Assembly: GCF_044324785.1 (NCBI RefSeq)
Contig: NZ_CP172127.1
Length of the DNA stretch: 64,000 nucleotides
Origin: Escherichia coli
GTDB taxonomy: Bacteria > Pseudomonadota > Gammaproteobacteria > Enterobacterales > Enterobacteriaceae
Direction: 5' to 3' (one strand)
Of this stretch, positions 1 to 54,549 are shown piece by piece. Below the pieces are notes generated by a model. The model was given only the letters and a program-made list of their open reading frames with translations. It searched no databases and was not told the DNA's origin. Numbering within the stretch: the stretch's first letter is position 1; the number at the start of each line of letters is the position of its first letter. Made by a program: the position numbers and the translations under genes.

Positions 1-1359
1 CTTCACCAGATCAGCATGATGCTGATAGCCATTAAAGAAGACGTTCAGCACAACGGCGCTAAGGGTTGCGAGCATAATGCCGCTATGCAGCAACGGTTGC
101 AGTACGGCCGGTAACTTAGAAAAGAAATCGTGAGAGAGCGTCGGAGTCATGCCAACGCCGAGACTGATCGCTACAATATAGAGGTTGTAACGGTTAGTGG
201 TGTAGTTACAGCGCGACAGAATTCGAATCCCTGTCGCCAGTACCATGCCGAACATCACCAGCCCAGCGCCGCCCAGCACAAATTGCGGAATGGAGGCGAC
301 CAGCACCGCCATTTTTGGCACCATGCCAAACAGGATTAATATAATTCCCGAAGAAATACACACCCAGCGGCTATGAACGCGCGTCACGCTAACCAGGCCA
401 ACGTTTTGTGAAAATGACGTGTGGGGGAAGCTGTTAAACGTTCCGCCTATCATTGTTCCTACGCCATCGACACGCAGCCCGCGAATAATATCGTGTGAAG
501 AGAGTTTACGACCGACTATTTCACCCAGTGCCAGGAACATCCCCATCGACTCGATAAACACGATGATTAACACGGCAGTCATGGTCAGAATGGAAACGGG
601 ATCGAAAATCGGCATACCAAATGACATCGGCGTGACAATCGCAAACCATGAAGCATCATGTAGCCCGGATAAATTGACTTCATTCATCATCCACGAAAGT
701 AAAAAGCCAAATACAATCCCCAGTAATACGGCGACGTTGGACATAAATCCTTTCGCATAGCGAGTAATGAGCAAGATAAAAATTAAGACGGCAAAGGAGA
801 TCCCCAAATAAACGGGATTACCATATTGCGGATTCCCTTTACCTCCGGCGGCCCAGTCAATACCCACCTGAATGATGCTAAGTCCGATAGAAGTAATAAC
901 CACACCGGTAACCAGTGGCGGGAATAAAGGCATCAAGCGACCGATAAGTGGCGCTAATAATGTGGTGATAAAACCCGCGGCGATAGTGGCACCAAATATC
1001 CCCAGCAGGCCGATATCCGGGTTCATCCCAATGGCTATCATTGGTGTTACAGCGGCGAAGGTCACCGACATAATCACCGGCAGGCGGATCCCCATAAAGC
1101 GGCCGATACCGATACATTGCAATAATGTGACGATTCCGCAGCAAAAGAGATCCGAGCTAATGAGCATCGCAATAGCTTCTTTTGAGAGGCCCAGTCGGTC
1201 ACCAATCATAAGAGGAACAGCGACTGCACCTGCGTACATGACAAGGACGTGTTGCAGACCGAGTATGATCAGCTTTCCTGGTGATAATATGCGGTCAACC
1301 TCATCAGTTGGGCGGTCTTGCCCTGAAGATGAGGAAAGTTGGGAATCTATGGCGCTCAT
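1..1359 (-). CDS. uacT: NCS2-family nucleobase (uric acid/xanthine-type) permease; C-terminus runs off the window start
   Basis: Minus-strand ORF with ATG at 1359 preceded by a GGAG-type RBS; translation MSAIDSQLSSSSGQ... is a multi-TM permease of the nucleobase:cation symporter-2 type. Position next to ygfT matches E. coli K-12 synteny. Not in the ORF track because it is truncated by the window edge. Confidence 0.8.
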   Translation of the reverse strand, partial: MSAIDSQLSSSSGQDRPTDEVDRILSPGKLIILGLQHVLVMYAGAVAVPLMIGDRLGLSKEAIAMLISSDLFCCGIVTLLQCIGIGRFMGIRLPVIMSVTFAAVTPMIAIGMNPDIGLLGIFGATIAAGFITTLLAPLIGRLMPLFPPLVTGVVITSIGLSIIQVGIDWAAGGKGNPQYGNPVYLGISFAVLIFILLITRYAKGFMSNVAVLLGIVFGFLLSWMMNEVNLSGLHDASWFAIVTPMSFGMPIFDPVSILTMTAVLIIVFIESMGMFLALGEIVGRKLSSHDIIRGLRVDGVGTMIGGTFNSFPHTSFSQNVGLVSVTRVHSRWVCISSGIILILFGMVPKMAVLVASIPQFVLGGAGLVMFGMVLATGIRILSRCNYTTNRYNLYIVAISLGVGMTPTLSHDFFSKLPAVLQPLLHSGIMLATLSAVVLNVFFNGYQHHADLVK

Positions 1360-1794
1360 CAGTGTTTCTCCTTTCGCCCGCCAGAGTAAAAAGCAACCGT
1401 TTACGTTAATGAAACTGTCTAAACACATGCTCGTGGAGTGCCAGTTTTTGCGAGGAAGGGGAGTTAGAGACAGGAATTGCGGAGGCAATCACATAATCGT
1501 GGTTAAACCACGAAAATGAGAAGAGAACCTGACAATGGAATTATCTGTAATTTTCTCATATTGATATTTCATTAATCATTCTGGCATGTCGCACTCTCGC
1601 TTTTAATCGTTTTTATCTGGATAGCGCTCTTTTGGTCGGCAATGTTGAAATAATGAAAGCGGCACAGATTGAGGGGCAATAATTTGAACTCAGTCGCAAA
1701 ATTATAATTAAAACGGTCATGCTACCTAATATATGCCCGTTTATTGCATCGCGAAATTTGAGAAGACATAACTCATTAAATGAAAGGGATGCAA

Positions 1795-3714
1795 ATGAAT
1801 AAGTTTATCGCTGCTGAAGCTGCGGAATGTATAGGCTGTCATGCTTGTGAAATTGCCTGTGCGGTGGCACATAATCAAGAAAACTGGCCGCTGAGTCACA
1901 GTGACTTTCGACCGCGTATCCACGTTGTAGGGAAAGGCCAGGCTGCGAATCCGGTGGCCTGCCATCACTGCAACAATGCTCCTTGCGTTACGGCTTGTCC
2001 GGTTAATGCTCTGACTTTCCAGCCCGATAGCGTACAACTGGACGAGCAAAAATGTATTGGTTGTAAAAGATGCGCAATCGCTTGCCCCTTTGGCGTCGTT
2101 GAGATGGTCGATACGATTGCGCAGAAATGCGACCTTTGTAACCAGCGCAGTTCCGGCACGCAAGCCTGTATTGAAGTCTGCCCAACACAGGCGTTACGGC
2201 TGATGGACGATAAAGGGTTGCAGCAGATAAAGGTGGCCCGCCAGCGCAAAACGGCAGCAGGAAAAGCGTCATCAGACGCTCAGCCATCTCGCAGTGCAGC
2301 GTTGCTCCCCGTTAACTCGCGTAAAGGCGCAGATAAAATTTCAGCGAGTGAACGGAAAACCCACTTTGGCGAAATTTATTGCGGGCTGGATCCACAACAA
2401 GCGACTTTTGAGAGTGACCGCTGTGTTTATTGCGCCGAAAAAGCTAACTGCAACTGGCATTGCCCGCTGCATAACGCTATTCCGGATTACATCCGTCTGG
2501 TGCAGGAAGGAAAGATTATTGAAGCGGCAGAACTTTGCCACCAGACCAGTTCCTTGCCAGAAATCTGCGGCAGAGTTTGCCCACAGGACCGTCTTTGTGA
2601 AGGCGCATGTACTTTGAAAGATCACTCTGGCGCAGTCTCTATCGGGAATCTGGAACGCTACATCACCGATACCGCGCTGGCGATGGGCTGGCGTCCCGAT
2701 GTCAGCAAAGTTGTTCCCCGTAGCGAAAAAGTGGCGGTGATTGGCGCAGGGCCTGCAGGGTTAGGGTGTGCTGATATTCTGGCGCGCGCAGGAGTTCAGG
2801 TTGATGTCTTTGATCGCCATCCAGAAATTGGCGGTATGCTGACTTTTGGCATACCTCCTTTCAAACTCGATAAAACGGTATTAAGCCAGCGGCGAGAGAT
2901 ATTCACCGCAATGGGAATCGACTTTCATCTTAACTGTGAAATTGGCCGCGATATTACCTTTAGCGATTTAACTTCTGAATATGATGCAGTTTTCATCGGC
3001 GTGGGGACTTACGGGATGATGCGAGCAGATCTGCCGCATGAAGATGCGCCCGGTGTCATTCAGGCTCTACCGTTCCTGACTGCCCATACCCGCCAGCTCA
3101 TGGGGTTGCCGGAGTCTGAAGAGTATCCGCTGACGGATGTGGAAGGTAAGCGAGTCGTGGTATTGGGCGGTGGCGATACGACCATGGATTGTTTGCGGAC
3201 TTCCATCCGCCTCAATGCCGCCAGCGTGACCTGCGCGTATCGTCGTGATGAAGTCAGTATGCCGGGCTCGCGCAAAGAGGTGGTCAATGCGCGCGAGGAA
3301 GGTGTTGAGTTTCAGTTCAATGTTCAGCCGCAATATATCGCTTGTGACGAAGATGGGCGTTTAACTGCGGTGGGCCTGATTCGTACAGCCATGGGTGAGC
3401 CGGGGCCGGATGGTCGCCGTCGTCCTCGTCCGGTAGCGGGTTCAGAATTTGAATTGCCCGCCGATGTTCTGATTATGGCCTTTGGTTTCCAGGCGCATGC
3501 CATGCCGTGGTTGCAGGGCAGCGGAATTAAACTCGATAAATGGGGCCTGATTCAAACCGGTGACGTTGGGTATTTACCTACCCAGACGCATCTGAAAAAA
3601 GTCTTTGCTGGTGGTGATGCAGTTCATGGCGCGGATCTGGTTGTCACTGCAATGGCCGCAGGAAGGCAGGCGGCGCGCGATATGTTAACTCTGTTTGATA
3701 CGAAGGCATCGTGA
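1795..3714 (+). CDS. ygfT: Fe-S / FAD-NAD(P)-binding oxidoreductase (glutamate synthase small-subunit-like with N-terminal ferredoxin domain)
   Basis: ORF 1780..3714; Cys clusters [11 protein letters not shown] and CxxCxxC..CP (4Fe-4S) followed by GAGPAGL dinucleotide-binding motif. Start placed at the third ATG (MNKF..., 639 aa, RBS aaaggga) to match the known length; 1780 is an alternative. Confidence 0.85.
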
Positions 3715-33487: not shown

Positions 33488-33561
33488 GCGGGCGTAGTTC
33501 AATGGTAGAACGAGAGCTTCCCAAGCTCTATACGAGGGTTCGATTCCCTTCGCCCGCTCCA
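33488..33561 (+). tRNA. glyU: tRNA-Gly (anticodon CCC)
   Basis: 74-nt sequence GCGGGCGTAGTTCAATGGTAGAAC...TTCGATTCCCTTCGCCCGCTCCA with cloverleaf stems, anticodon loop cTTCCCAAg and encoded 3' CCA. Confidence 0.9.
33544..33561 (+). repeat. attL core (3' end of glyU)
   Basis: Exact 18-bp copy of the sequence at 52689-52706. Confidence 0.75.
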
Positions 33562-33725
33562 AACAAACATTTCTCAACGTCTACTGAAGTCCATCAAATC
33601 CACGAATATCAAGCCTTTCAGCCATTTTCATAGCTTATTAACGTCTACTCACAACTACCAGAATCTACACACAGAAGTGTATAGTAATGCGTATAGGACA
33701 AAATTTATTTTTTGGAGCTATACAC

Positions 33726-34940
33726 ATGCTGCTTTCAGACCTTGCTATCAGGCGCGCGAAGCCGAAAGAAAAGGCTTATACACTCAATGACGGTAACGGG
33801 CTTTCGTTACTCATTGAGCCGAACGGCTCGAAAGGGTGGCGACTACGTTACAGATTTGCAGGAAAGCCCAAAATGTTGTCGTTGGGCGTGTACCCTGATG
33901 TGTCTCTGTCTGATGCCAGAGCGGCAAGGGATGAGGCTAAAAGGCTTCTTGCTGGTGGTATAAATCCAAGTGAGGCCAGAAAAGCTCAAAAGCGAGAACA
34001 GGCGAGCAAATTTGGCAATACTTTTGAGGGTATCGCTCGCGAATGGTATGAAAAGCGGATCGACAGGTGGTCATCGTCATACGCCGAGGAAATGATCGAG
34101 ACGTTTGAAAAAGACGTTTTTCCGTACATTGGCGGCAGGCCGATCGCAGAAATTAAGCCAATGGAGTTGCTTGCGGTTCTCTCCCGTCTTAATGACCGTG
34201 GGGCGACCGAAAAATTGCGTAAGGTTCGCCAGCGATGCGGCGAGGTGTTCCGGTACGCAATCATCACCGGACGCGCTGAATATAACCCCGCACCAGATCT
34301 GGCAAGCGCATTTGCTCCACACAAAAAAGAGCATTATGCCTATTTGAAGGCCGACGAACTGCCGGAATTTTTCCGCGTTCTTAATACGTACACCGGAAGC
34401 CAGATCGTCAAGCTGGGTATGCGATTATTGATTCTGACAGGGCTCCGGCCAGGGGAATTACGACAGGCAGAATGGCAGGAGATCGATTTTGATAATCGTT
34501 TGTGGGAAGTGCCTAAAGAACGAATGAAGATGCGCCGTCCTCATTGTGTGCCGCTTTCAGAACAGGCGATCGCTATTCTGGAACAGTTAAAACACATGAC
34601 GGGGCAGTATCAGTTTATTTTCCCTGGTCGAATCCAGCACAGTAAGCCGATGAGTGAAATGGCGATGAACGTGCTTATTCGTCGTATTGGCTATTCTGGG
34701 CGCGTTACTGGTCATGGGTTCCGGCACACGATGAGCACGATTTTACATGAGCAGGGCTATAACACCGCGTGGATAGAAACGCAGCTTGCACACGTTGATA
34801 AGAACTCAATTCGTGGCACGTACAATCATGCGCAATATCTGGACGGGCGGCGCGAGATGCTCCAGTGGTACGCCGACTATATGGACTCACTGGAACAGGG
34901 CGGCAACGTGGTGCATGGCAAGTTCGGAAAATGTGGATGA
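33726..34940 (+). CDS. int: Tyrosine recombinase, P4-family integrase
   Basis: N-terminus MLLSDLAIRRAKPKEKAYTLNDGNGLSLLIEPNGSKGWRLRYRFAGKPKMLSLGVYPDVSLSDAR is the P4-type integrase arm-binding signature; C-terminal catalytic residues (R..HGFRHT..Y); ATG at 33726 with GGAG RBS preferred over the ORF-track start at 33687. Confidence 0.85.
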   Translation: MLLSDLAIRRAKPKEKAYTLNDGNGLSLLIEPNGSKGWRLRYRFAGKPKMLSLGVYPDVSLSDARAARDEAKRLLAGGINPSEARKAQKREQASKFGNTFEGIAREWYEKRIDRWSSSYAEEMIETFEKDVFPYIGGRPIAEIKPMELLAVLSRLNDRGATEKLRKVRQRCGEVFRYAIITGRAEYNPAPDLASAFAPHKKEHYAYLKADELPEFFRVLNTYTGSQIVKLGMRLLILTGLRPGELRQAEWQEIDFDNRLWEVPKERMKMRRPHCVPLSEQAIAILEQLKHMTGQYQFIFPGRIQHSKPMSEMAMNVLIRRIGYSGRVTGHGFRHTMSTILHEQGYNTAWIETQLAHVDKNSIRGTYNHAQYLDGRREMLQWYADYMDSLEQGGNVVHGKFGKCG

Positions 34941-35062
34941 CTGGTTGAGTATACAGTAGTAGACTTTGAGCGACGAAAGAAAAAGCTGTGTCTAGGGTCG
35001 CTCCCGAAAAACCGTATACCTCGACGGGCTGGCACAGCCACTACAGTAGAGGACGCTGAGGT

Positions 35063-35866
35063 GTGCGTATGATTGATATTCATGCCGAATTAAACGAATA
35101 CAAAAAAGATTTTATTTCTTTACGTGAATTTCTTGAGGTCGTGCTTAAGGTCGCTGGTGATGATTATGATGTTTCAGATCTCATAACTTGGATACTCAGG
35201 AGAATAAGCGGAGAACATATCCGCCTGTACACAGTAAATGAATTTAAGCTGTTGGAATCTTTTTGTAACCCGTATCGGGATGAATTTGATTATGATGTTC
35301 TTTATAGAAATCTGGATGCGGTTCGGAAACATGGTTGTTTACCTGGTGAGAGGGATGAAAATGGTTTTCTGGTGTCCGGTTATTGGGAAGATCCCGAATT
35401 TGAGAACATTGGATTTATAAGGGGTGAAATTTTCGCAATTTTTCCCGATGTCCTTGACGCGTTAACGAAGCTGGAAGGCGCTAACTCTTCTGAAAATGAC
35501 GAGGTACAAGGACGCGATATTGAAAAGAAAGAGTTGCGTACAGAGGATGATTTATTATCCCAAATCGCAATGCTGGAAAGAGAAAACGCAGAGTTAAGGG
35601 CAAGGATAGAGCAGTTAGAGCAAGAGCGCCCGATACACTTATATAAATACTGGGATAAAGACCCATTAGCTAAGGCTATTGAGATTAGAAACAGAGAGTG
35701 GGCCAATTACGATCCAGAAAATGATTTTGCCACCAGGGGAAATCAAGAAGCGATAACCAGGGAGCTTAAGCAGTGGGGGGCAAGTAATGCTCTTGCAACG
35801 CTCATAGAGAGGACTGCCTGCCCTATTAACCGAGACAACAGCCAAAAGAACGCAAAGCCGGATTAA
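35063..35866 (+). CDS. Hypothetical protein (coiled-coil C-terminus), integrase-adjacent
   Basis: 267-aa ORF; acidic, with a heptad-like segment (LLSQIAMLERENAELRARIEQLEQE); no recognisable catalytic motif. Confidence 0.45.
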   Translation: MRMIDIHAELNEYKKDFISLREFLEVVLKVAGDDYDVSDLITWILRRISGEHIRLYTVNEFKLLESFCNPYRDEFDYDVLYRNLDAVRKHGCLPGERDENGFLVSGYWEDPEFENIGFIRGEIFAIFPDVLDALTKLEGANSSENDEVQGRDIEKKELRTEDDLLSQIAMLERENAELRARIEQLEQERPIHLYKYWDKDPLAKAIEIRNREWANYDPENDFATRGNQEAITRELKQWGASNALATLIERTACPINRDNSQKNAKPD

Positions 35867-35881
35867 CGCACCATACCGCAT

Positions 35882-36024
35882 ACCCTGAGGGTGATTTACT
35901 GTTACCCTGAGGGTATTTTTTTATCTTCCCCGTCAATTTTACCATCACCCTTAGGGTAGATTTCCTCCCGATTACCATCACCCTTAGGGTTAATTTCCTT
36001 CCGGTAACCATTAGGCCTGAGGGT
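35882..36024. repeat. Cluster of five near-palindromic 11-bp repeats (ACCCTGAGGGT / ACCCTTAGGGT) upstream of alpA
   Basis: Copies at 35882, 35904, 35947, 35980 and 36016 (the last as CCTGAGGGT); two copies sit inside a 17-bp direct repeat ACCATCACCCTTAGGGT. Confidence 0.5.
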
Positions 36025-36093
36025 ATGAAAATATTCGTTATTTCTGTGCCATGATTACCTCGTCAAATTGAGTAGACGTTATGAGGTAAATAG

Positions 36094-36291
36094 ATGTCAA
36101 ATACGCTTATTCGTTTAACAGAAGTTCAGCGTAGAACTGGATATAGCAAGGCATGGATTTATCGCCTTATGGGGCAAGGTAAATTTCCTGCATCAGTTAA
36201 AATTGGCTCGCGAGCGATTGCTTTCGTTGAAAGTGAAATTGACGAATGGATCAATCAGCGTATTGCCGAATCACGCGGAACGGCTGCCTGA
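36094..36291 (+). CDS. alpA: AlpA-family phage regulatory protein (excisionase/transcriptional regulator-like HTH)
   Basis: 65 aa; MSNTLIRLTEVQRRTGYSKAWIYRLMGQGKFPASVKIGSRAIAFVESEIDEWI matches the AlpA/Vis-type HTH pattern; RBS present. Confidence 0.8.
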   Translation: MSNTLIRLTEVQRRTGYSKAWIYRLMGQGKFPASVKIGSRAIAFVESEIDEWINQRIAESRGTAA

Positions 36292-36366
36292 TTAAATAGC
36301 TACGGGTTATTGCCCAAGCTATCCACTAGCAAATAAAAAGTAACTTAATTCGATAGCGGAGTTTTT

Positions 36367-37191
36367 ATGAAACTGCGAAAAACGCCCGTACAGGGGCAGG
36401 GCTTTGTTCGGCCTGAAAACCAGAATCTGCAAAATTTCGGCGAAATTATCCCGGTTATTTCCGGCGTTATTGGCGGGCGTGAAGCCGCTGTTGTTAGCGC
36501 AAAAGCGTTACACAAAGCGTTGGGCGTGGGAAAAGACTTCTCTACATGGATCACTGATCGTATCTCTGAATATGACTTCACCATTGGGTACGATTACTCA
36601 GTCCATAAAACAATTTCCCCAAATTTGGGGAAAAGCCCGAATGGCGAGGCTTACAGCAAGATTAAGCACTCTGGCAGACCCGGTAAAGACTATCTGTTAA
36701 GTGTCGGAATGGCGAAAGAACTGGCAATGATCGAACGCACCGAACAGGGCCGCGCCGTTCGTCAGTACTTCATCAAATGCGAGGAGGAGCTACACAAAGT
36801 AGCGCCAGTGCGTTCCGCAGCGTTACGCCGTGAACTGAAAGCCCGTATCACCGTTGCCAGCTACTTTAAGCCGATGTGTGCCGCGCTGGAGGCGTACCGC
36901 GCTGAACTGGGTAAAAACACGCTCCAGCACCACTACACCACGGAAGCCAATATGCTGGCGCGTATCGTGCTGGGTGGCATGACTGCAAAACAGTGGGCGC
37001 AGGCGAACGGCATCACAGGCGAACCACGCGACCACATGAGCACGCTGCAGCTTGAGCACCTTTCTTACCTTGAGCAGAGCAATATCACGCTGATTGAGTT
37101 AGGCCAGGACTACCACCAGCGGAAAGCTGAATTAATTCGTCTTTCGCAACGCTGGTTAGCCCGCCGCATGGAGGTGAGCAGCCATGCGTAA
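36367..37191 (+). CDS. Phage antirepressor-like regulatory protein
   Basis: 274 aa; N-terminal segment (VVSAKALHKALGVGKDFSTWITDRI) resembles AntA/Rha-type phage regulatory domains. Confidence 0.5.
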   Translation: MKLRKTPVQGQGFVRPENQNLQNFGEIIPVISGVIGGREAAVVSAKALHKALGVGKDFSTWITDRISEYDFTIGYDYSVHKTISPNLGKSPNGEAYSKIKHSGRPGKDYLLSVGMAKELAMIERTEQGRAVRQYFIKCEEELHKVAPVRSAALRRELKARITVASYFKPMCAALEAYRAELGKNTLQHHYTTEANMLARIVLGGMTAKQWAQANGITGEPRDHMSTLQLEHLSYLEQSNITLIELGQDYHQRKAELIRLSQRWLARRMEVSSHA

Positions 37192-37741
37192 ACCTGTCTT
37201 TTATGCCGGGCGCACTGAAATCTCTGTCATTAAATTCGATGACATTCAGGTGCGCATAGTGAGTATCAACGGCGAGCCGTGGTTTGTTGGCGCTGATGTG
37301 TGTGCTGCGCTGGAAATCAGCAATGTTACTGATGCTGTTTCAGTTCTGGATAACGACGAGGTAATGACCCTAGCTTTAACCGAGGGGCATTCCGGTAAGC
37401 GTGGTGGTGCCAGAAGCTGGAATGTTGTCTCTGAATCAGGTTTCTACAAACTGATCGCCCGCAGCCGTAAAGCTTCCACACCTGGCACATTTGCGCACCG
37501 TTTCAGTAACTGGGTATTCCGCGAGGTTATTCCTTCAATCCGCAAAACGGGGAGTTATGGTGTTCCGTTTGCCATGCTGAATGATTTCAGTAAACGCCAG
37601 GCTGCATATCAACAGGAAGCCAGCAAACGCGGTTACAGGTTACAGCAATGCAAAGAGGCAAAAGATGCACTGGAACGAGAAGAGCGGGCGCTATGGCGTA
37701 AATATCAGCCTGATTTTCTGGAGGGTGAAAGCAATGTGTAA
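37184..37741 (+). CDS. Bro-N domain protein (phage antirepressor family)
   Basis: 185 aa; GEPWFVGADVCAALEISNV...VLDNDE...ESGFYKLIARSRK...FSNWVFREVIPSIRKTGSYG is the Bro-N signature. Confidence 0.7.
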   Translation: MRKPVFYAGRTEISVIKFDDIQVRIVSINGEPWFVGADVCAALEISNVTDAVSVLDNDEVMTLALTEGHSGKRGGARSWNVVSESGFYKLIARSRKASTPGTFAHRFSNWVFREVIPSIRKTGSYGVPFAMLNDFSKRQAAYQQEASKRGYRLQQCKEAKDALEREERALWRKYQPDFLEGESNV

Positions 37742-37909
37742 CGATCCGAACGTTACAGAAAGAAAAAGCGCCCCGTTGCTGGATAACAGGCAAAACAAAG
37801 GCGACCGGGATAGGTCGCCAGTGGGAACAAAGGAAATCAAACGCATCGCCAACAATGCCAGATTTGCGGCTGGTGGGCAATGTGATCAGTGTGCTGGCTT
37901 GCTGGTGGG

Positions 37910-38107
37910 CTATTCCTGCTCTTTAGCATCGCCATACTGCGATGTTTTCCAGGTATGCGATCCCATTTTTGTGCGCCTGTACTCTTTTAAGAACTTCTCA
38001 AGGACAAACGCACATGGCGCAAATCTTTCCTGTTCTTGTTCGCTTACCGCATTTTTGCGTTGTTTTTTCCTGGATGAGGATAATTTCTTTAATGATTTGT
38101 CAGTCAT
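37910..38107 (-). CDS. Small hypothetical protein (paralogue of 38165..38362)
   Basis: 65-aa minus-strand ORF in a region where the overlapping plus-strand ORF looks non-coding; shares the C-terminal KEQE ending and a basic/acidic pattern with its neighbour. Confidence 0.3.
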   Translation of the reverse strand: MTDKSLKKLSSSRKKQRKNAVSEQEQERFAPCAFVLEKFLKEYRRTKMGSHTWKTSQYGDAKEQE

Positions 38108-38164
38108 CGTAGATACCTGTAACCCTGTGCGCCACAGTTCACCGCACCACGGCGCTGGTGATGG

Positions 38165-38362
38165 TTACTCCTGCTCTTTGGCCTTCCGGCGCTGTTCATA
38201 TTTTAATTTGCGTCCACAGGCATCTAAGACCCATGCGGAAAAATTAGCACTAGGATTAGTTAATTTTTCTTGTTCAACACTGGCATCAATCCCATCTATA
38301 AGCTCGTGCGGGAATCGAATATTTTTCTTTGCTGATTTGTTGTTTGTGTTTCCGCTAGACAT
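38165..38362 (-). CDS. Small hypothetical protein, candidate regulator divergent from the replication operon
   Basis: 65-aa minus-strand ORF whose 5' end abuts the operator-like palindromes at 38391-38469. Confidence 0.3.
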   Translation of the reverse strand: MSSGNTNNKSAKKNIRFPHELIDGIDASVEQEKLTNPSANFSAWVLDACGRKLKYEQRRKAKEQE

Positions 38363-38390
38363 TGGTACACCTCACTTAAATGGATTTGAT

Positions 38391-38469
38391 GGGCGCACAC
38401 AATACAGCAAAAAAAGTGAGAAGTTAAGTATTGACATGTGCGCACACATGATTTTAATCTGTGCGCACA
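38391..38469 (+). promoter_or_regulatory. Sigma70-like promoter overlapped by three GTGCGCAC palindromic operator-like sites
   Basis: -35 TTGACA (38431-38436), 16-bp spacer, -10 TTTAAT (38453-38458); palindrome GCGCACA at 38393-38399, TGTGCGCACACA within the spacer (38437-38448) and GTGCGCACA at 38461-38469. Confidence 0.45.
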
Positions 38470-38567
38470 GTTTGGGTTGCATTGCTCAAATTAAGCAACG
38501 CCCCGCAGTGCTCGCAACACATGCAGGGCGTCTAACCACCAACGATAGAAAGCGTATCGAGGTAGCT

Positions 38568-38771
38568 ATGTTAAATCATACCACACACCCGCAAGGGCGG
38601 GACTCGCACAACCTGAATAAATACATCTGGCGTTTTATCGCCCTGAGCACCGCACAACCACGCGTAATACACATCGAGGCCGCCAGCGAACAGGAAGCCC
38701 GTCAGCAATCCCCGGCTGGCTGCGTGATGGTATTTACTGCCCGCATCCGTCAGGGGGAATACTATGCGTGA
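38568..38771 (+). CDS. Small hypothetical protein (first ORF downstream of the operator-controlled promoter)
   Basis: 67 codons (MLNHTTHPQGRDSHNLNKYIWRF...) with GAGG RBS; corresponds to the only plausible coding part of ORF-track entry 37581..38771. Confidence 0.3.
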   Translation: MLNHTTHPQGRDSHNLNKYIWRFIALSTAQPRVIHIEAASEQEARQQSPAGCVMVFTARIRQGEYYA

Positions 38772-39021
38772 TGAACGATTTATTCTTCTGGAGCAAAAAT
38801 TCAGTGAAGCGCCAAAAAATGAAATTGATGCTCTTTTGCATATCGCGAATATGCTAAAAGTAGCAACGTTCCTTATAGTTTCGAATCTGGAGCATGAAAC
38901 GGCGTTAGATATACTGAACAGTGCTGTCGATTATTCTGAATATATTGCCGAGGATAAATACAGGCAATTACCAGATTTGTTAGCCCATAAATATAAAGAA
39001 GAACCTCACACCGGGAAATAA
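38764..39021 (+). CDS. Hypothetical protein
   Basis: 85-aa ORF in the same orientation and tightly packed with the replication gene. Confidence 0.4.
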   Translation: MRDERFILLEQKFSEAPKNEIDALLHIANMLKVATFLIVSNLEHETALDILNSAVDYSEYIAEDKYRQLPDLLAHKYKEEPHTGK

Positions 39022-39023
39022 AC

Positions 39024-39326
39024 ATGAAGAAGATTAAATTTACTGGCTTAAATGCCAGCGGACAGACTCACCCGAAAATCAGGATCGGGGATATTTTCCG
39101 GGATAAATATGGTGACAGCGTGGTTATTAATTCCGTGTATGAACGGCACATTACATACCGCCGCGCAGGGTACGACTATGACTGTGTGATGCCCGTTCAT
39201 CAGTTCCGGCGTGATTTTTCACTGGTATGTGCAGTACCACGCAGTAAGCCCACCAGTAAAGAGAAAGCACGGGCAAATATTCAGGTAATAAAGAACATGA
39301 TTAACGCATTCAGGGGCAAGAAATGA
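39024..39326 (+). CDS. Hypothetical protein
   Basis: 100-aa ORF; stop overlaps the start of the 708-aa replication gene (ATGA). Confidence 0.4.
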   Translation: MKKIKFTGLNASGQTHPKIRIGDIFRDKYGDSVVINSVYERHITYRRAGYDYDCVMPVHQFRRDFSLVCAVPRSKPTSKEKARANIQVIKNMINAFRGKK

Positions 39327-48273: not shown

Positions 48274-51029
48274 TGAAACAGGCATGTGTTGAAGCTATTG
48301 CGCAGACACTTGGTCGCCAGCCAAAGGCTGATGAGCTGAAAAATATCGAAGATCGTATCAAAGAAGCAGTGCAACATGTGCACAGAAAGAATGCAAAAGA
48401 AGGCAAAAGTGGTATTCCTGATGCTCAAACATACATGGATGCTGCAGAACTGGTACGCCAGCGTGTGGTTCATGATGTGTACAAGAAAAGACAGCGTGTT
48501 GCCCAGAATGCGATCGCCATCAGTAAAATTACTGACACTCTCGATGCTAACATCCCGCCTGATCAGCAGACACCTGTTAATTTGCAGCAGTTTATTTTTG
48601 CTGGCCGACGATCGAGAGACAAAGCTGATATCTCCGTTGCTTCTGCTGAAGAGCTTGCAATTGGGGCATATCAGGACTGGTCCCGTCAGCTCAGTGCTGA
48701 ACTTCTAAAAGCAGGTGATGACGTCCGCAAATTCTTCGAGCAGAGCAGGGCGCTTGGAGAGCAGCGGTTTCGGAGTGTATTCGACAGGCAGGCGGCAAAG
48801 TCTGCACAACTCCAGATCCTGAAAGAAATATATGGCGAAGATACCGGGAATCCCCTGGCGAAGAAAATTGCACAGATTTGGAAGGATGTAACAGGCCGTG
48901 TTCGTCATGAGATGAACGACAATGGCTTTGACATAGGCCTGCGAGAAGACTGGCATACGCCATATGTGGATGATGCTGACCTTATTCGCAATGCCGGGCG
49001 CGAAGAATGGCTGGCATCGTTACCAGTGGCAGAGCAAGCTACAGCACGTCTTTCAGGTCGCCAGCCACCGATTGAGTTTGCCCGCCAGAAATGGGTTGAT
49101 GACGCTTACAACACGCAGGATCGCAGCAATTACGTTAATCCTGACGGCAGCATTATGAATGACGTCGAGTACCGTCAGGCACTGGAAGCGATCTTTGAAA
49201 CGAAGGCCACTGATGGGGCAAACAAAATTGAGCCTGGTACATTTATGGGAGCCGGAGGAATAAAGAGCCGTGGTTCTCAGCACAGGGTGATGGCGTTCAA
49301 GGATGCGCAGTCACACTTCGCCTATATGGAACGATACACTCAGCAGCCGCTGGTGGGGGTGATGATGTCGCACCTGCAATCATCATCCAGGGATTTGGGC
49401 GTCGTTAAAGCCTTTGGTCCGGACGCCGAAAGAAACTTTTCCCTGGTACTGGATCGCATCTATAAGCGCGCAGTAACAGGCGGGAAACGCAAAAAAGAAA
49501 TGGAGGATGAGGCCAAATTAGTTGCCCGTATGTTCAACTCAATGGCTGGCCTAAATGGTGTCGCTTCATCGAGTGTGTTCTCTTCAGCAGTTGGTGGTCT
49601 GCGTAACCTGATGACCAGCGCCATGCTTGGCACCAGCGTACTGACAGCAACCAGCGACCAGGCAATTATGCGGGCAAATGCGCAGGCGCTGGGCTTTACC
49701 CGTGGTGGAATGCGGCTTTCCGTTAACACTATCAAAAACCTGTTTAGTGGAGATGCCAAAAAGGCGAATGCTGAACTCGGTCTGCTGGTGGATTCACATG
49801 CTGCTGTGGTTTCGAAAATGGGCGGGTTTGACTTGTCTCGCGGCATAACTGGCTGGTTCGCAGAGAAGACACTGAAGTGGTCCGGGCTGATCGCTATGGA
49901 CCGCGCAAACAAAGCGTCGTTTGGTCTCCTGATGTACAAAAACATTGGCGAGCTGACCAGAAAATTTAAGACGCTGGACGATATGAAAGGAACCGATAAA
50001 ACCATTCTGGCTAACAAGGGATGGAGCAATGAGGACTGGGCCATCATGGCAGCGGCAGAACTCAGGCCGATGACTACTGCCGGGCATATGGGGATGACGC
50101 CAGACGCGATTTACGCTGTGCCCGATAACGTAATAGCCGACATTATGGCAGACCGTATTACCCGGATTCGTGCCGGGAGTGAAAAGGCACTGGCAGCCCT
50201 TGGAGATCTCCCTCCAGAACGCCTGAAACGGATGAAAGAAGCATTCGACGCTGAGGCTGAGCAGACCATCACGCGCATGATTCGTAATGCACGCGCTGAA
50301 GCAGCCCAGAAATTGCTGGGAATTACGCACGGTGAGATGACCAATGCTGTGACCACCGCTACGGGTATTGATACATATGCCCGTGATGATGCTGGCGAGT
50401 TAATGAAGAGCTTCATGCTCTTCAAAACAACCCCATTTGCTGGATTTCGGCAACTTGTTAACAGAACACGGGATTTGGACACCGTTCCGGCCATTAAATT
50501 TCTGGCCTCATATATCGGGGGAACAACTCTTGCTGGTATGTTTGCGATCCAGATGAACAGTTTGTTAAATGGTAATGATCCGCTGGATATGACAAAACCA
50601 ACCACATGGGTTCAGGCTTTACTGAAAGGTGGTTCGTTCGGTATCTACGGTGATTTTATTTTCCAGGACCATACGCAATATGGCTCCAGAATCGGTGCCA
50701 CTATGGGTGGCCCTGTGTTGAGCTTTGCAGAGCAGTTAACAAAATTACTGATTACTAACCCACAGAAGGCTCTACAGGGTGAAGAAACATCATTCGGTGC
50801 CGATGCACTGAAAACAGCCCGCATGATCACCCCATTCGCAAACCTGTGGTATGCGAAAGCGATAACCAATCACCTGATATTGCAACAACTTCAGGAGATG
50901 GCAAACCCTGGTTACAATGATCGAGTAAGGGACCGCGCGCAACGGGAGTTCGACATAACGAGTTGGTGGGAACCGGGTGCTATTGCGCCACGTAGAGCAC
51001 CGGATTTTGGAAAGGCGGTGGGGAACTGA
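48273..51029 (+). CDS. Large hypothetical protein (918 aa), cargo operon gene 3
   Basis: ATG at 48273 overlaps the upstream stop (TAATG) with a GAGGA RBS; the ORF-track start at 48252 is a GTG in the same frame; no recognisable catalytic motif. Confidence 0.6.
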   Translation: MKQACVEAIAQTLGRQPKADELKNIEDRIKEAVQHVHRKNAKEGKSGIPDAQTYMDAAELVRQRVVHDVYKKRQRVAQNAIAISKITDTLDANIPPDQQTPVNLQQFIFAGRRSRDKADISVASAEELAIGAYQDWSRQLSAELLKAGDDVRKFFEQSRALGEQRFRSVFDRQAAKSAQLQILKEIYGEDTGNPLAKKIAQIWKDVTGRVRHEMNDNGFDIGLREDWHTPYVDDADLIRNAGREEWLASLPVAEQATARLSGRQPPIEFARQKWVDDAYNTQDRSNYVNPDGSIMNDVEYRQALEAIFETKATDGANKIEPGTFMGAGGIKSRGSQHRVMAFKDAQSHFAYMERYTQQPLVGVMMSHLQSSSRDLGVVKAFGPDAERNFSLVLDRIYKRAVTGGKRKKEMEDEAKLVARMFNSMAGLNGVASSSVFSSAVGGLRNLMTSAMLGTSVLTATSDQAIMRANAQALGFTRGGMRLSVNTIKNLFSGDAKKANAELGLLVDSHAAVVSKMGGFDLSRGITGWFAEKTLKWSGLIAMDRANKASFGLLMYKNIGELTRKFKTLDDMKGTDKTILANKGWSNEDWAIMAAAELRPMTTAGHMGMTPDAIYAVPDNVIADIMADRITRIRAGSEKALAALGDLPPERLKRMKEAFDAEAEQTITRMIRNARAEAAQKLLGITHGEMTNAVTTATGIDTYARDDAGELMKSFMLFKTTPFAGFRQLVNRTRDLDTVPAIKFLASYIGGTTLAGMFAIQMNSLLNGNDPLDMTKPTTWVQALLKGGSFGIYGDFIFQDHTQYGSRIGATMGGPVLSFAEQLTKLLITNPQKALQGEETSFGADALKTARMITPFANLWYAKAITNHLILQQLQEMANPGYNDRVRDRAQREFDITSWWEPGAIAPRRAPDFGKAVGN

Positions 51030-51343
51030 TGACGAGAGATAAAATTGAATATATTGCTTCTCTTAAATATGAAGCTGAGAAATGGAGAAGGATTGGCGGG
51101 TGGGGAACATTAATATCACTCTCTGCTTTACTTATAGACTCCTGGTTCAGACATATTGATGCAGCATCATTACTTTTTGAATCAGCAGTACTTGGTGGAT
51201 TCATTTGCTGTTGGGGTGGTAATTATGATCGGGCGTCCAAACATAAGAGAGAACTTGACGCGATATGTTTTGCTTTATTCGGTAAGGATTACGAAAGTTC
51301 TGACCTTGATATAATTGAATTCAACAAAACGGAACTATCGTGA
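51029..51343 (+). CDS. Small protein with one hydrophobic segment (104 aa), cargo operon gene 4
   Basis: TGATG coupling to gene 3; predicted membrane-spanning stretch (LISLSALLIDSWF...VLGGFICCWGG); followed by a terminator. Confidence 0.45.
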   Translation: MTRDKIEYIASLKYEAEKWRRIGGWGTLISLSALLIDSWFRHIDAASLLFESAVLGGFICCWGGNYDRASKHKRELDAICFALFGKDYESSDLDIIEFNKTELS

Positions 51344-51351
51344 CATGTCAC

Positions 51352-51376
51352 AGGCCGCTTTCGCGGCCTTGTTTTT
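51352..51376 (+). terminator. Rho-independent terminator of the cargo operon
   Basis: Stem aggccgc / gcggcct with loop tttc, followed by TGTTTTT; 9 nt after the stop of the 104-aa gene. Confidence 0.6.
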
Positions 51377-52045
51377 AACGAATGCCACCGCCGCCCGGGC
51401 GGGAATTCGCAGATAAAAAAGCACGCTGCACGGTTTTATTAATACTTATACCATTAGGATTGATCCTTCAATGGACAATCCTTCCATCGTGTGGCCAGCC
51501 ATTCATATTCTTTGTCTTTTCTTCAGTATCGGCTTTGCATCTTCTACACCCTGAAAGATGTCGTTTTATGGTGTATCTGATGATTTATTCCCTAACAATA
51601 GATATTCGAAAAATTAATCAGTTAAAACAATTATTTGGATAATTTCAGGTAAAACTATCTTAATCTTCTGGTGGATCTCAATGCGTAGTGACGGTATCGG
51701 GATTAAGGGCGTGGATATTCGCGATATATGCCGCTACACCCCTCAACAGTAATAGATATGAGCTTTTCACGCTCTCCTTTCACTGCTGAGAACGGCAACA
51801 ACGTGCCACAGGAACGCGCTGTAATCGATTCTGACGCACTTAATTGCGTTGGGTAATGGTTTTTGCCAGCCTGTGGGGGTAACTCTGTTTTATGAGGCTT
51901 TGGCTATAGTGCAAAAATACACTTTGTCTTGCCTCTCAATTTGATGAGACTGGAACGACAACAGGACAGACCACCAGCAACAGTTACCGTATTCAGCCGT
52001 TCTGTGGCACCAGTGGAACTATCAACCCCTGCTTTCAGCAATGTG

Positions 52046-52203
52046 TTTGCGGGTTATTTTGGGGCGTTTGCGGGTTATTTGGGATGTTTTGCGGGTTATG
52101 TGATGCTTGAATAATGAACAGTGTATTTTGCAACATATTGATACTAAAGAACAAAAAATAGTTAGCATACTAAGATAACCCGGTAACCCGCATAACCCGC
52201 ACT
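52046..52203. repeat. Iteron cluster B: three inverted and three direct copies of the same (A/G)TAACCCGC motif
   Basis: TTTGCGGGTTAT at 52046, 52067 and 52088; ATAACCCGG at 52175, GTAACCCGCA at 52183, ATAACCCGCAC at 52193; same motif as cluster A, ~10.5 kb away, just inside attR. Confidence 0.55.
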
Positions 52204-52688
52204 GTTTTGTATATATATACGAAAAATTGCATTCAGGAGGGGGGGAGCGAAATCCCTACAATCCATTGCTTATGGGACCGCCCGCCTCGTCAAATTTTTA
52301 CACCCGCGAAATAAAAAAATACTTCACGCTGGTGGGCATGATGCTGATATGGGAGGCTTCCATAACGCCACCATTCGGAACTATGCAAATCTGCATAGAA
52401 AAGGGGATGCCTGATACAATACCCTCGCCCGATAAAATCACACCGATAAACTCATCTGCCACGAGTAGAAAGAGCGAACGAACCCGATACGCAGTAATGC
52501 TTGTCGGGTACAGCTTTTTAAGGCGGCTGTAGATATCAGGCCATCCGTGATCATCCACCAGCGAGATAGCCGATAACGATGACGCATAACCCTCAAGCGA
52601 GGGATAAATGTGTATAGAAATGTGTATAGAATTGATTTTAGAACTCGCAGGATTCGCGCTATTACTGGCCTTGTGTGATGTTGTATTG

Positions 52689-52706
52689 TTCCCTTCGCCC
52701 GCTCCA
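52689..52706 (+). repeat. attR core (duplicated glyU 3' end)
   Basis: Exact 18-bp copy of the glyU 3' end, 19.1 kb downstream of the tRNA. Confidence 0.75.
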
Positions 52707-52938
52707 ATTTATCTTCACCTCATCAACCTGTCATTTTTGTTGTATCTGATTTTCTATATTATCTTAATTCAATCGCTTCAGACTTTTCGCAATCGCCGAA
52801 ATACTTCCCCATTTTTTTGTAAATAAAAGCGTTTACGCAATGCAATCCATTTGTAACAACCCAGGTAAAATACCTTATTTTCAAGTTGTTAAATAAGTGG
52901 TTATCTACGCTTTTAACAAACGATTGATGGAATCTTTT

Positions 52939-54549
52939 ATGAAAGGGAAATCTACATTAACTCTTCTGCTCGCTGGTATATTTTCATGCGGCACATGCCA
53001 GGCGACAGGGGCAGAAGTGACGAGTGAATCTGTATTTAACATTCTTAATTCCACGAGGGCAGTAACAGATAAAAGTTATTTATCGTTAAATCCAGATAAG
53101 TATCCTAATTATCGTCTTCTGATTCACTCAGCCAAATTACAAAATGAAATAAAGAGCCACTATACCAAAGACGAAATTCAAGGATTGTTTACATTAACAG
53201 AAAACACACGAAAGTTAGCGTTGACGGAGAAACCCTGGGGAACGTTTATTCTTGCTTCTACTTTCGAAGATGACAAAACAGCGGCAGAAACCCACTATGA
53301 TGCTGTCTGGCTGAGGGATAGTTTATGGGGCTATATGGCATTAGTATCAGATCAGGAAAATAGGGTAGCTGCAAAAAAGATTCTGCTCACCCTGTGGGAT
53401 TATATGTCTACGCCCGACCAGATTAAGCGGATGCAGGATGTCATTAGCAACCCAAAACGACTGGATGGAATTCCCGGGCAAATGAATGCTGTGCATATCC
53501 GATTTGACAGCAACTCCCCCGTGATGGCAGATGTGCAGGAAGAAGGCAAGCCGCAGCTGTGGAACCATAAACAAAATGATGCTTTAGGTCTTTATCTTGA
53601 TCTCCTTATACAAGCAATCGACACTGGTACTATTAACGCTGAAGACTGGGAAAAAGGTGACCGATTAAAATCGATTGCGCTGTTGGTTGCTTATCTGGAT
53701 AAAGCCAATTTCTATGTTATGGAAGATTCTGGAGCGTGGGAAGAAGATGCCCGATTAAACACATCTTCAGTTGCACTGGTGACCTCTGGACTGGAACGTT
53801 TGTCAAACCTACTCTCGAAGAAAGACTCTGTTTTTGTCTCTGATTTACTACGCGAAGCTAAAGCCAATGAACTGGATGAACCTCTTTCAACAACGAGGTT
53901 GAACCATCTCATAGATAAAGGGTATGAAAGAATAACGCTACAGCTTGATTTAGGGGGAGAATCCCCTGGTTATCTGGAAAAAGATAAACATTACAGAGAA
54001 GCTGATGCGGCCTTACTTAATGTTATTTATCCTGCAAATCTTTCAAAGATAAACACCAGAAGAAAAGAGCAAGTTCTAAAAATAGTTAAAAAACTAGCAG
54101 GTCCGTATGGTATAAAAAGATACGAGAAGGATAATTATCAGTCGGCAAATTTTTGGTTCAATGATATTAAAACTGATACCGATCAAAATTCACATGCGAA
54201 AAGAGAAAAGAGCTTCATTCCATCAACAGAAGCAGAATGGTTTTTTGACTCATGGTATGCAAAATCAGCAGCAATTGTTTATAAAGAATCAAGAAAAGAA
54301 GAATATTTGAATGACTCAGTGCAATTTATGAATAGATCATTGGCCCAAATAACAGGCGAGAATATGATTGGTGCAAATGGCAGGAGCGTACCTGAAATGG
54401 CACTTCCCGAAAGCTATAACTATATCCACAAGTCAGGAACTTTGCATGAAGCGCCAAGCCCTATCATTCCGCTAAACTGGTCGAAAGCCTCAATGACTCT
54501 TATGTTGAAAGAAATGTCCAACCTTATCAATGATGAGGGAAATAAATAG
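52939..54549 (+). CDS. Secreted (possibly lipo-) protein with glucoamylase-like (GH15-type) motifs
   Basis: Signal peptide MKGKSTLTLLLAGIFSCGTCQA; glucoamylase-type motifs WLRDS (W-x-R-D) and GAWEE (general-acid region); AT-rich like the neighbouring T3SS genes; the ORF-track start at 52897 is an alternative. Confidence 0.55.
   Translation: MKGKSTLTLLLAGIFSCGTCQATGAEVTSESVFNILNSTRAVTDKSYLSLNPDKYPNYRLLIHSAKLQNEIKSHYTKDEIQGLFTLTENTRKLALTEKPWGTFILASTFEDDKTAAETHYDAVWLRDSLWGYMALVSDQENRVAAKKILLTLWDYMSTPDQIKRMQDVISNPKRLDGIPGQMNAVHIRFDSNSPVMADVQEEGKPQLWNHKQNDALGLYLDLLIQAIDTGTINAEDWEKGDRLKSIALLVAYLDKANFYVMEDSGAWEEDARLNTSSVALVTSGLERLSNLLSKKDSVFVSDLLREAKANELDEPLSTTRLNHLIDKGYERITLQLDLGGESPGYLEKDKHYREADAALLNVIYPANLSKINTRRKEQVLKIVKKLAGPYGIKRYEKDNYQSANFWFNDIKTDTDQNSHAKREKSFIPSTEAEWFFDSWYAKSAAIVYKESRKEEYLNDSVQFMNRSLAQITGENMIGANGRSVPEMALPESYNYIHKSGTLHEAPSPIIPLNWSKASMTLMLKEMSNLINDEGNK

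Follow-up and report, generated by a model that had tools for sequence, protein, structure and literature searches.

What does the right-hand end of a genomic island hold when no gene can be recognised in it? The question is raised by positions 52204-52688 of a 64,000-nt stretch of Escherichia coli DNA (contig NZ_CP172127.1; hereafter the window), which close an island of 19,126 bp (33563-52688) integrated in the chromosome at tRNA-Gly(ccc). An earlier note, made from the letters alone, saw here only short, overlapping open reading frames (ORFs) on both strands, and proposed either a gene remnant or an untranslated cis-acting region with arm sites of the attachment site attP. Our analysis bears out the second proposal and discards the first, and it adds two kinds of element that the note had overlooked, a packaging site and Chi sites. 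Judged by its homologies, the segment at 52236-52318 is very probably a cohesive-end (cos) packaging site of the phiP27/SfV type, set within the non-coding, cis-acting end of a phage satellite. An apparently empty island end can thus be annotated as a series of cis elements: the edge of a replication origin, cos, a pair of Chi sites, a terminator hairpin, integrase arm sites and the att core.

The phage relationship was found by sensitive BLASTN against 50,697 phage records, in which the segment matched the Stx2e phage phiP27. This match falls at the annotated 'cos-site' of the phage, in a gap of 116 bp between the gene of an HNH endonuclease and that of a Terminase_4 (P27-family) small terminase subunit (TerS), and the 10-bp cos annotation, CGCCCGCCCC, consists of the 10 nt that follow GGAC. 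Burkholderia phage records have the same motif at the left end or close to it (in the first ~115 bases), immediately upstream of TerS. For phage SfI the ends of the virion DNA have been sequenced, and the 10-nt gap, TGCCCGCCCC, is situated at the position homologous to the core in the window (PMC3636060); a literature search for the cos string returned this paper only. The site is composed of the following parts:

52236-52318, plus strand: segment with 84.5% identity over 83 bp to the HNH-TerS intergenic region of phiP27 (NC_003356, 21764-21845)
52235-52259, plus strand: G-rich upstream cos box AGGAGGGGGGGAGCGAAATCCCTAC, in a cosQ-like position; the same box, GGGAGGGGCGGGTCAAATCCCTG, occurs in phages and satellites
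52275-52311, plus strand: predicted cos core of 37 nt, GGAC followed by CGCCCGCCTC and GTCAAATTTTTACACCCGCGAAA, with the predicted 10-nt cohesive-end sequence at 52279-52288
52319-52353, plus strand: right flank of cos peculiar to satellites, TACTTCACGCTGGTGGGCATGATGCTGATATGGG, where phages have the start of TerS; in 28 of 28 TerS-less loci and 0 of 88 phage loci

The core unites GGAC, a GC-rich cohesive-end sequence of 10 nt and (G/C)TC(A/G)AATTTTT..CCCGCGAAA. A degenerate 37-nt cos pattern matches the 64-kb window once (52275-52311, 0 mismatches), as against no match in 100 shuffles. Across all 37 nt the core is 100% identical to that of four phiP27-like phage loci in which a P27-family TerS follows (L048, L084, L112 and L115; loci are numbered with the prefix L), and GGGAGGGGCGGGTCAAATCCCTG precedes the core by 20-45 nt, both in phiP27 and in practically every phage or satellite locus. 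No homologue of TerS, of the large terminase subunit TerL or of HNH was found anywhere in the 64-kb window. The cos of the window, like that of all 28 TerS-less loci, is therefore not placed between hnh and terS of its own genome, and with none of these genes beside it, it is by definition a satellite-borne copy.

How phage and satellite copies differ was surveyed by scanning IMG/VR with the 37-nt pattern, which gave 111 loci; the 28 satellite loci discussed here include the window and two E. coli loci. The division into 28 and 88 loci was made according to whether GCTGGTGGG occurs no more than 40 nt from the core, and its coincidence with the absence of TerS was found afterwards. In nearly all of the 88 loci that have no Chi after the core, a P27-family TerS of 156-167 amino acids (aa) begins 16-27 nt further downstream, its N-terminus being ...GRGRKPKPTARKELAGNPGKRALNK; contig ends, one insertion-sequence (IS) insertion and one frameshift account for the others. 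The 28 loci devoid of TerS carry the common flank CTTCACGCTGGTGGGCNTGATGCCGATATGGGG after the core. Moreover, there is a second subtype among the satellites (GGACTGCCAGCCCCATCGA...), similar to a second one among the phages (GGACTGCCAGCCCCCTCGA...), so that satellite cores track particular phage lineages.

The module is widespread in E. coli. The stretch is matched in 723 of 5,426 complete genomes, and 52275-52353 is matched at ~80-85% identity in the majority (several hundred) of 736 E. coli records, always near the right end of an integrated element; one such element lies at tRNA-Ile and encodes a primase, SSB and a protease/capsid fusion, and another lies next to smrA. This right-end position is kept in elements with other replicons and other integrases. 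The cos-plus-Chi module marks the right ends of satellites in many of the 723 genomes, and could be a marker to find satellites and to sort them by helper type.

The second finding is that the satellite copies of cos are accompanied by Chi, the octamer recognised by RecBCD. Two copies lie in the stretch:

52328-52335, plus strand: exact Chi octamer 5'-GCTGGTGG-3', 40 nt right of the predicted cos cut
52555-52562, minus strand: inverted Chi, CCACCAGC in plus-strand letters, an inverted repeat with 52324-52335

Chi follows the core by 10-17 nt in 28/28 satellite loci and 0/88 phage loci, classes that are themselves defined by GCTGGTGGG and whose members are related. Of the 27 other satellite loci, 15 have an equivalent inverted Chi 63-100 nt beyond the core, and the island has another inverted copy at 51971-51978. 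In total, 10 forward and 5 reverse copies are found in the 19.1 kb of the island and 4 and 1 in the 44.8 kb of its flanks, an excess in the island with a Poisson P of 3e-5 against the E. coli average of one per 4.6 kb. Related satellites average 0.59 forward and 0.29 reverse Chi per kb upstream of cos. The forward copy at 52328-52335 has the orientation recognised by RecBCD moving leftward, which is the active one for packaging that runs rightward from cos (PMC12315714); the inverted copy at 52555-52562 is read by RecBCD moving rightward from the cos-cut left end. Chi is also lost together with the cos core in two decayed loci, L122 and L123, where GCTGGTGG has become GCGATGGTAGG.

Lambdoid phages without recombination modules are rich in Chi (PMC12315714, which makes no mention of satellites), and a trade-off between Chi and recombinases has been described for phages (PMC3784561). 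The linkage of Chi to cos is suggestive. It is possible, albeit doubtful, that the Chi beside cos, usually paired with an inverted copy, is a dedicated RecBCD shield or recombination starter of satellites that lack both terminase and Rec functions. If so, Chi would stop RecBCD before it reaches cos (leftward, on concatemers) or att and int (after entry from the cos-cut end), and would also load RecA to build the multimers that a 19-kb element needs to fill a phage-sized head. This offers a testable idea of how satellites without recombination or anti-RecBCD genes survive RecBCD. In the literature searched, the coverage of which is incomplete, we found no description of a phiP27/SfV cos in terminase-less E. 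coli satellites, nor of a cos-linked Chi; the latter is the only mildly novel detail of an otherwise ordinary, interpretable satellite end.

The island itself is probably a phage satellite of the type of the phage-inducible chromosomal islands (PICIs). Gram-negative PICIs have the order Integration-Bro-Replication-Late, with the origin expected downstream of pri (PMC10111431), and the gene order of the island fits this scheme: int, alpA, AntA/Bro and the DUF927 primase, then an iteron origin. An integrase lies at one end, direct att repeats mark a specific site (tRNA-Gly), the size is within 10-20 kb, and there is no terminase, tail or lysis module. The integrase (33687-34940) is a tyrosine integrase with N-terminal Arm-DNA-bind_3 domain (E=2e-26), an int-alpA RNA motif is situated at 34985-35052 and AlpA is encoded at 36094-36291; AntA, Bro-N, the DUF927 primase, SSB, ProQ and three large ORFs complete the inventory. 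At least 12 unrelated isolates have an identical island at this tRNA.

Its borders are well defined. The tRNA-Gly(ccc) gene at 33488-33561 is the one tRNA in the 64-kb window (ARAGORN, Rfam), and similarity of the right flank to other chromosomes begins exactly at 52689, overlapping the annotated tRNA-Gly (>5,000 E. coli genomes); the junction between island and chromosome is 52689. The stretch hence lies where the earlier note had placed it, with inverted iterons (52172-52201) to its left and the att core to its right. Its last part holds the sites that would serve the integrase:

52608-52631, plus strand: two tandem predicted integrase arm-type repeats ATGTGTATAGAA, perfect copies, in the P' arm of attP
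52689-52707, plus strand: attR core, a 19-bp direct repeat ttcccttcgcccgctccaa of the 3' end of tRNA-Gly(ccc), identical to 33544-33562

The arm-type repeats proposed in the note are indeed present, at both ends of the island. Three copies of ATGTGTATAGAA (at most 2 mismatches) lie beside attL (33675-33686 and 33687-33698 on the plus strand, 33716-33727 on the minus strand), and of the 11 such matches in the 64 kb, 5 lie no more than 170 bp from the att cores. The motif thus occurs on both arms and is distinct from the core, the integrase has an arm-binding domain, and the repeats change with the type of integrase. Identity with a relative at the dinD site ends at 52563; beyond this point that relative carries two copies of GTGTACATAA instead of the ATGTGTATAGAA pair, and satellites with other integrases have different tandem repeat pairs at the same position. 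We regard the ATGTGTATAGAA repeats as putative integrase arm-type sites.

Between cos and the arm sites, the stretch is composed of a palindrome and of DNA that has been inserted into it:

52354-52532, no strand: lineage-specific insert of ~179 bp, which splits the palindrome and holds most of the 86-aa and 101-aa ORFs
52381-52398, no strand: small hairpin or palindrome CTATGCA-AATC-TGCATAG, predicted in folds of both strands
52469-52519, plus strand: bidirectional-terminator-like hairpin, with its stem at 52482-52509, a GUAA loop, an A-tract at 52469-52475 and a T-tract at 52513-52519
52533-52575, no strand: right arm of the palindrome and a GATAGCCG..GATAACG box, common to satellites with different integrases

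Most relatives have a compact imperfect palindrome here (GCTGGTGG..CCGATATGGG / CCCATATCGG..CCACCAGC), with the two Chi copies as its outer arms; the satellite L124 has a compensatory variant of it, CCGATACCG/CGGTATCGG. The palindrome was considered as a universally stable hairpin beside cos and rejected as such: its fold is strong in L005 (z -4.1), whereas L004 (z -0.7) and the window (z ~-1.2) form no strong hairpin. Its right arm with the adjoining box aligns to 6158-6199 of L005 and 6098-6117 of L004, and the box recurs in L005, L017, L045 and L047. Of the 736 matching E. coli records, only 44 have the insert. Intermediate or rearranged versions of this region are seen in L090 and L124, which carry the CTATGCA-AATC-TGCATAG module at other positions relative to the inverted Chi.

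Within the insert, the hairpin at 52469-52519 has 84.5% identity to an intergenic hairpin of phage P1, located between the convergent genes pmgF and rlfB. The predicted fold has an energy of -22.4 kcal/mol (z -2.8) in the window and of -27.6 kcal/mol (z -7.4) in P1; reading of the sequences shows a GNRA loop in each hairpin and compensatory changes at two pairs of the stem. Most simply, this P1-like hairpin is a bidirectional terminator acquired by recombination. The P1-like 71 bp were also considered as a remnant of rlfB or pmgF and rejected: tblastn gave no credible protein similarity, and the match is intergenic, overlapping rlfB by 3 bp. Other searches for signals were negative. A promoter and terminator consensus scan gave counts no higher than in shuffles, its only notable site being a minus-strand hairpin (52324-52341) with a T-run, made of the Chi flank and the A-run of cos, and Rfam at the gathering and E<=1 thresholds returned nothing credible in 51300-52950.

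Could the stretch nevertheless code for protein, or belong to something other than a packaging site? The three ORFs of the earlier note were recovered as described, and no longer ORF is found here:

52298-52558, minus strand: 86-aa ORF with a GTG start, WP_050019225.1, a hypothetical protein in some RefSeq genomes; judged spurious
52438-52707, minus strand: 89-aa ORF with a TTG start inside the tRNA-derived att core
52227-52532, plus strand: 101-aa ORF with a TTG start

The 86-aa ORF is annotated in several genomes by the Prokaryotic Genome Annotation Pipeline (PGAP), which also makes longer calls of 135 and 251 aa in relatives, and it is intact in ~44 genomes; that it, or one of the longer versions, is a real or recently broken gene is nonetheless hardly credible to us. 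The PGAP calls of 86, 135 or 251 aa are inconsistent among near-identical islands and represent one frame, whose lengths differ through homopolymer indels of 1-2 nt (G7/G6/G5, C3/C2, A7/A6). In its 135-aa form the frame begins within the att core, in its 251-aa form it runs across the cos site and both iteron clusters, and in its 86-aa form it ends inside the cos core at its 3' end, with its body spanning the insert that most relatives lack; in more distant relatives the ORF-bearing DNA is absent, 52354-52532 being reduced to 7 bp (L005) and 17 bp (L004). A search of ~5.8 billion proteins with the 86-aa sequence found only 5 clusters, all E. coli-type, at least 87% identical and 68-151 aa long, and neither the three ORFs nor the 251-aa relative match any Pfam or PHROG family. 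The note's remark that no start is supported by a ribosome-binding site agrees with our reading of the sequence, in which no Shine-Dalgarno motif precedes the 86-aa GTG or the 101-aa TTG, and none of the 86-, 89- and 101-aa ORFs displays the frame conservation, the family or domain, or the translation signals of a coding gene. An alignment of related elements, the check that the note suggested for a gene remnant, shows no full-length gene. The three ORFs are by-products of cis-acting sequence, and the RefSeq 'hypothetical protein' calls here are artefacts.

A second possibility takes its cue from the left edge of the stretch, which adjoins two opposed clusters of GCGGGTTAT iterons (52045-52107 and 52172-52201), the latter, cluster B, consisting of three inverted copies of ATAACCCGC:

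52202-52234, no strand: AT-rich palindromic spacer TTTTGTATATATATACGAAAAA, abutting iteron cluster B, with the overlapping palindromes I2/I12

This spacer is AT-rich and palindromic, and it is inherited with the GCGGGTTAT iterons in every case (L005 and L122-L124), no matter what comes next; in PICIs the origin is expected downstream of pri. The spacer is probably the unwinding part of the island's replication origin. To extend this reading to the whole stretch, as an unwinding element with host-factor sites in place of a packaging site, seems to us very improbable. The cos segment is found also in satellites of the L004 type, whose primase gene differs and which lack GCGGGTTAT-type iterons directly upstream, and in phages it is placed directly upstream of TerS, at genome termini; the segment thus does not track the replicon, and only the first ~30 bp fit an origin. 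More serious, though still improbable, is the view that the segment is an inert fossil, left from a phiP27-like phage by ancient capture or recombination, and that the island is no longer packaged through it. Its attraction is that no matching helper was found in genomes that carry the island, that the conserved palindrome adjoining cos is disrupted by the 179-bp insert, and that truly decayed copies exist elsewhere, namely at the right ends of L122 and L123. But it is these copies that show what relaxed constraint looks like: 10 of their 37 core positions are mismatched, whereas the core of the window is intact and identical to live phage-type loci, with the G-rich box and Chi intact as well, and the identical islands in unrelated isolates are consistent with recent mobility. 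L122 and L123 belong to elements with terminases of their own, which have a different cos-like core, GGACACCGACCGCCTCCTCAAATTTTTGTGCACGGGAAT, between hnh and terS; decay in these and integrity in the terminase-less window make the copy in the window look maintained rather than fossil.

Several points weigh against a functional phiP27/SfV-type cos. Its function is assigned by homology. If the palindrome beside cos is a cosB-like element bound by terminase, the 179-bp insert could impair packaging. The satellite loci are closely related, and the 28 occurrences of Chi do not amount to 28 independent events; likewise, the 28/88 split was itself defined by GCTGGTGGG, TerS absence having been matched only later. 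The helper was not found: none of the 12 genomes with the identical island is among the full-length matches listed for the phiP27-subtype module. Finally, the cargo of the island recalls another phage, epsilon15, whose small terminase is annotated (by HHpred) as SF6-like and not named as P27-family, and which gave no DNA match to the cos region in the BLASTN search of phage records. With epsilon15-like cargo and no epsilon15 cos match, cargo and cos point to different helpers.

This cargo, the 'late zone' of the island, comprises the three large ORFs at 43682-51029 (843, 686 and 925 aa), plus 51029-51343, which are homologues of gp15-gp16-gp17 of the podovirus epsilon15. The 925-aa protein is 88.7% identical to epsilon15 gp17, and there are strong PHROG matches to head and virion proteins; these homologues of internal virion or ejection proteins are the only virion-protein genes of the island. 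The helper class predicted from cos, by comparison, is that of phiP27/SfV/e14-like phages with HNH and a P27-family terminase. An HNH-cos-TerS module of the phiP27 subtype with the core of the window is found in 18 of the 5,426 complete E. coli genomes, and, among the matches listed, only strain A36 has both the phage module and a related satellite. This satellite, L124 (2840-3400), lies in yifB/comM and has a core identical to that of the window, and the packaging module of a phiP27-subtype prophage, 97.7% identical to L048, is found at ~3.33 Mb. Satellite and prophage of A36 are a candidate for a natural helper-satellite pair.

Capsid-forming PICIs (cf-PICIs) with their own HNH, P27-family TerS and TerL share the iteron origin and the right-end segment with the island. 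L122 (APEC17) and L123 (ETEC4085), at 1-3300, represent a cf-PICI (head-tail connector, HNH, TerS, TerL) inserted in the terL of a prophage. L125 (E. coli MSB1_8B; 1-3300), a cf-PICI adjoining hpt, combines an hnh-terS-terL set of its own with an intact phage-type cos and Chi at the right end, so that two different cos-like sites are found in one element. We also considered that the island parasitises the terminases of cf-PICIs, and disfavour this, given that the cos-like core between hnh and terS of the cf-PICIs differs (GGACACCGACCGCC...).

Some further observations concern the remainder of the island and its surroundings. A 267-aa ORF without family match (35063-35866) sits between the int-alpA RNA motif and alpA, and looks like cargo inserted there. 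A 138-aa ORF (42597-43013) without Pfam match has an N-terminal half that matches a PHROG annotated 'terminase' (E=1e-10) and a C-terminal half that matches the anti-repressor Ant family; conceivably it is a packaging-redirecting or DNA-binding factor. A terminator hairpin (51352-51369) follows the last gene of the island, and the ~660 bp from there to the iterons (51380-52040) have no consistent annotation among relatives, the small ORFs of L002 and L003 differing even in strand. A fourth iteron-like sequence, CGCATAACCCTCA, at 52583-52595, has one mismatch to ATAACCCGCA; it lies ~390 bp from cluster B, in the integrase-specific arm, and may be a chance match. To the right of attR, the chromosome varies by strain: in AH19D088 and FDAARGOS_1298 (L001/L002, 4352-5903) yqeG/yqeF come after the island, while the window (52708-54549) instead shows a 550-aa ORF that matches Glyco_hydro_15 (52897-54549), together with further genes.

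Taken as a packaging site of the phiP27/SfV type, the segment suggests the following course of events. The satellite, having copied the whole HNH-TerS intergenic region of a phage without acquiring a terminase of its own, would excise and replicate from the adjacent iteron origin. The terminase of a phiP27/SfV-type helper, with its HNH partner, would then cut at 52279-52288 to give 10-nt cohesive ends, and packaging would proceed rightward, across attP into int. Chi and inverted Chi might attenuate RecBCD from either side, drive RecBCD/RecA recombination into packageable multimers, or do both, and the arm repeats would serve integration and excision, as the P' arm of attP.

Several components of this arrangement have counterparts in known systems. 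The cos sites of phiP27, SfV and SfI are of the same family as that of the island, with the G-rich box, GGAC, a GC-rich cohesive-end sequence of 10 nt and GTCAAATTTTTACACCCGCGAAA; in the phages, however, cos lies between hnh and terS, whereas the island lacks both genes and has the start of TerS replaced by a Chi-bearing satellite flank. Similarly, the putative integrase arm sites correspond to those of tyrosine integrases of the lambda/P4 family, in which short repeats unlike the core are likewise found on both arms of attP and an N-terminal domain binds them. With the Chi-rich lambdoid phages that have no Rec module (the LLS class) the island shares a Chi density far above the E. coli average and apparently also an excess of the orientation that is active with cos, but in these phages Chi clusters near the right end, while the island has one Chi in a fixed place, 40 nt to the right of the cos cut, with an inverted copy for a partner. 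SaPIbov5 and P4 resemble the island in strategy: both have copied the cos of their helper and have no terminase of their own, but their sequences and hosts are regarded as unrelated to those of the island, P4 uses the 19-nt cos of P2, and the helpers of SaPIbov5, according to a published summary, also need an HNH protein for cos cleavage (10.1101/2022.09.08.507074). EcCICFT073, like the island, is a terminase-less int-alpA-pri-ori element with a helper-type cosN at its far end and a non-phage flank that replaces cosB; its cos function was shown by deletion and cosmid assays (PMC6092414), and it has two cosN copies of the lambda/phi80 type, where the island has a single site of the phiP27/SfV type, predicted from sequence. 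Terminase-less satellites that carry the cos of a helper are thus well known from P4, SaPIbov5 and EcCICFT073, and to these the island adds the phiP27/SfV family of cos.

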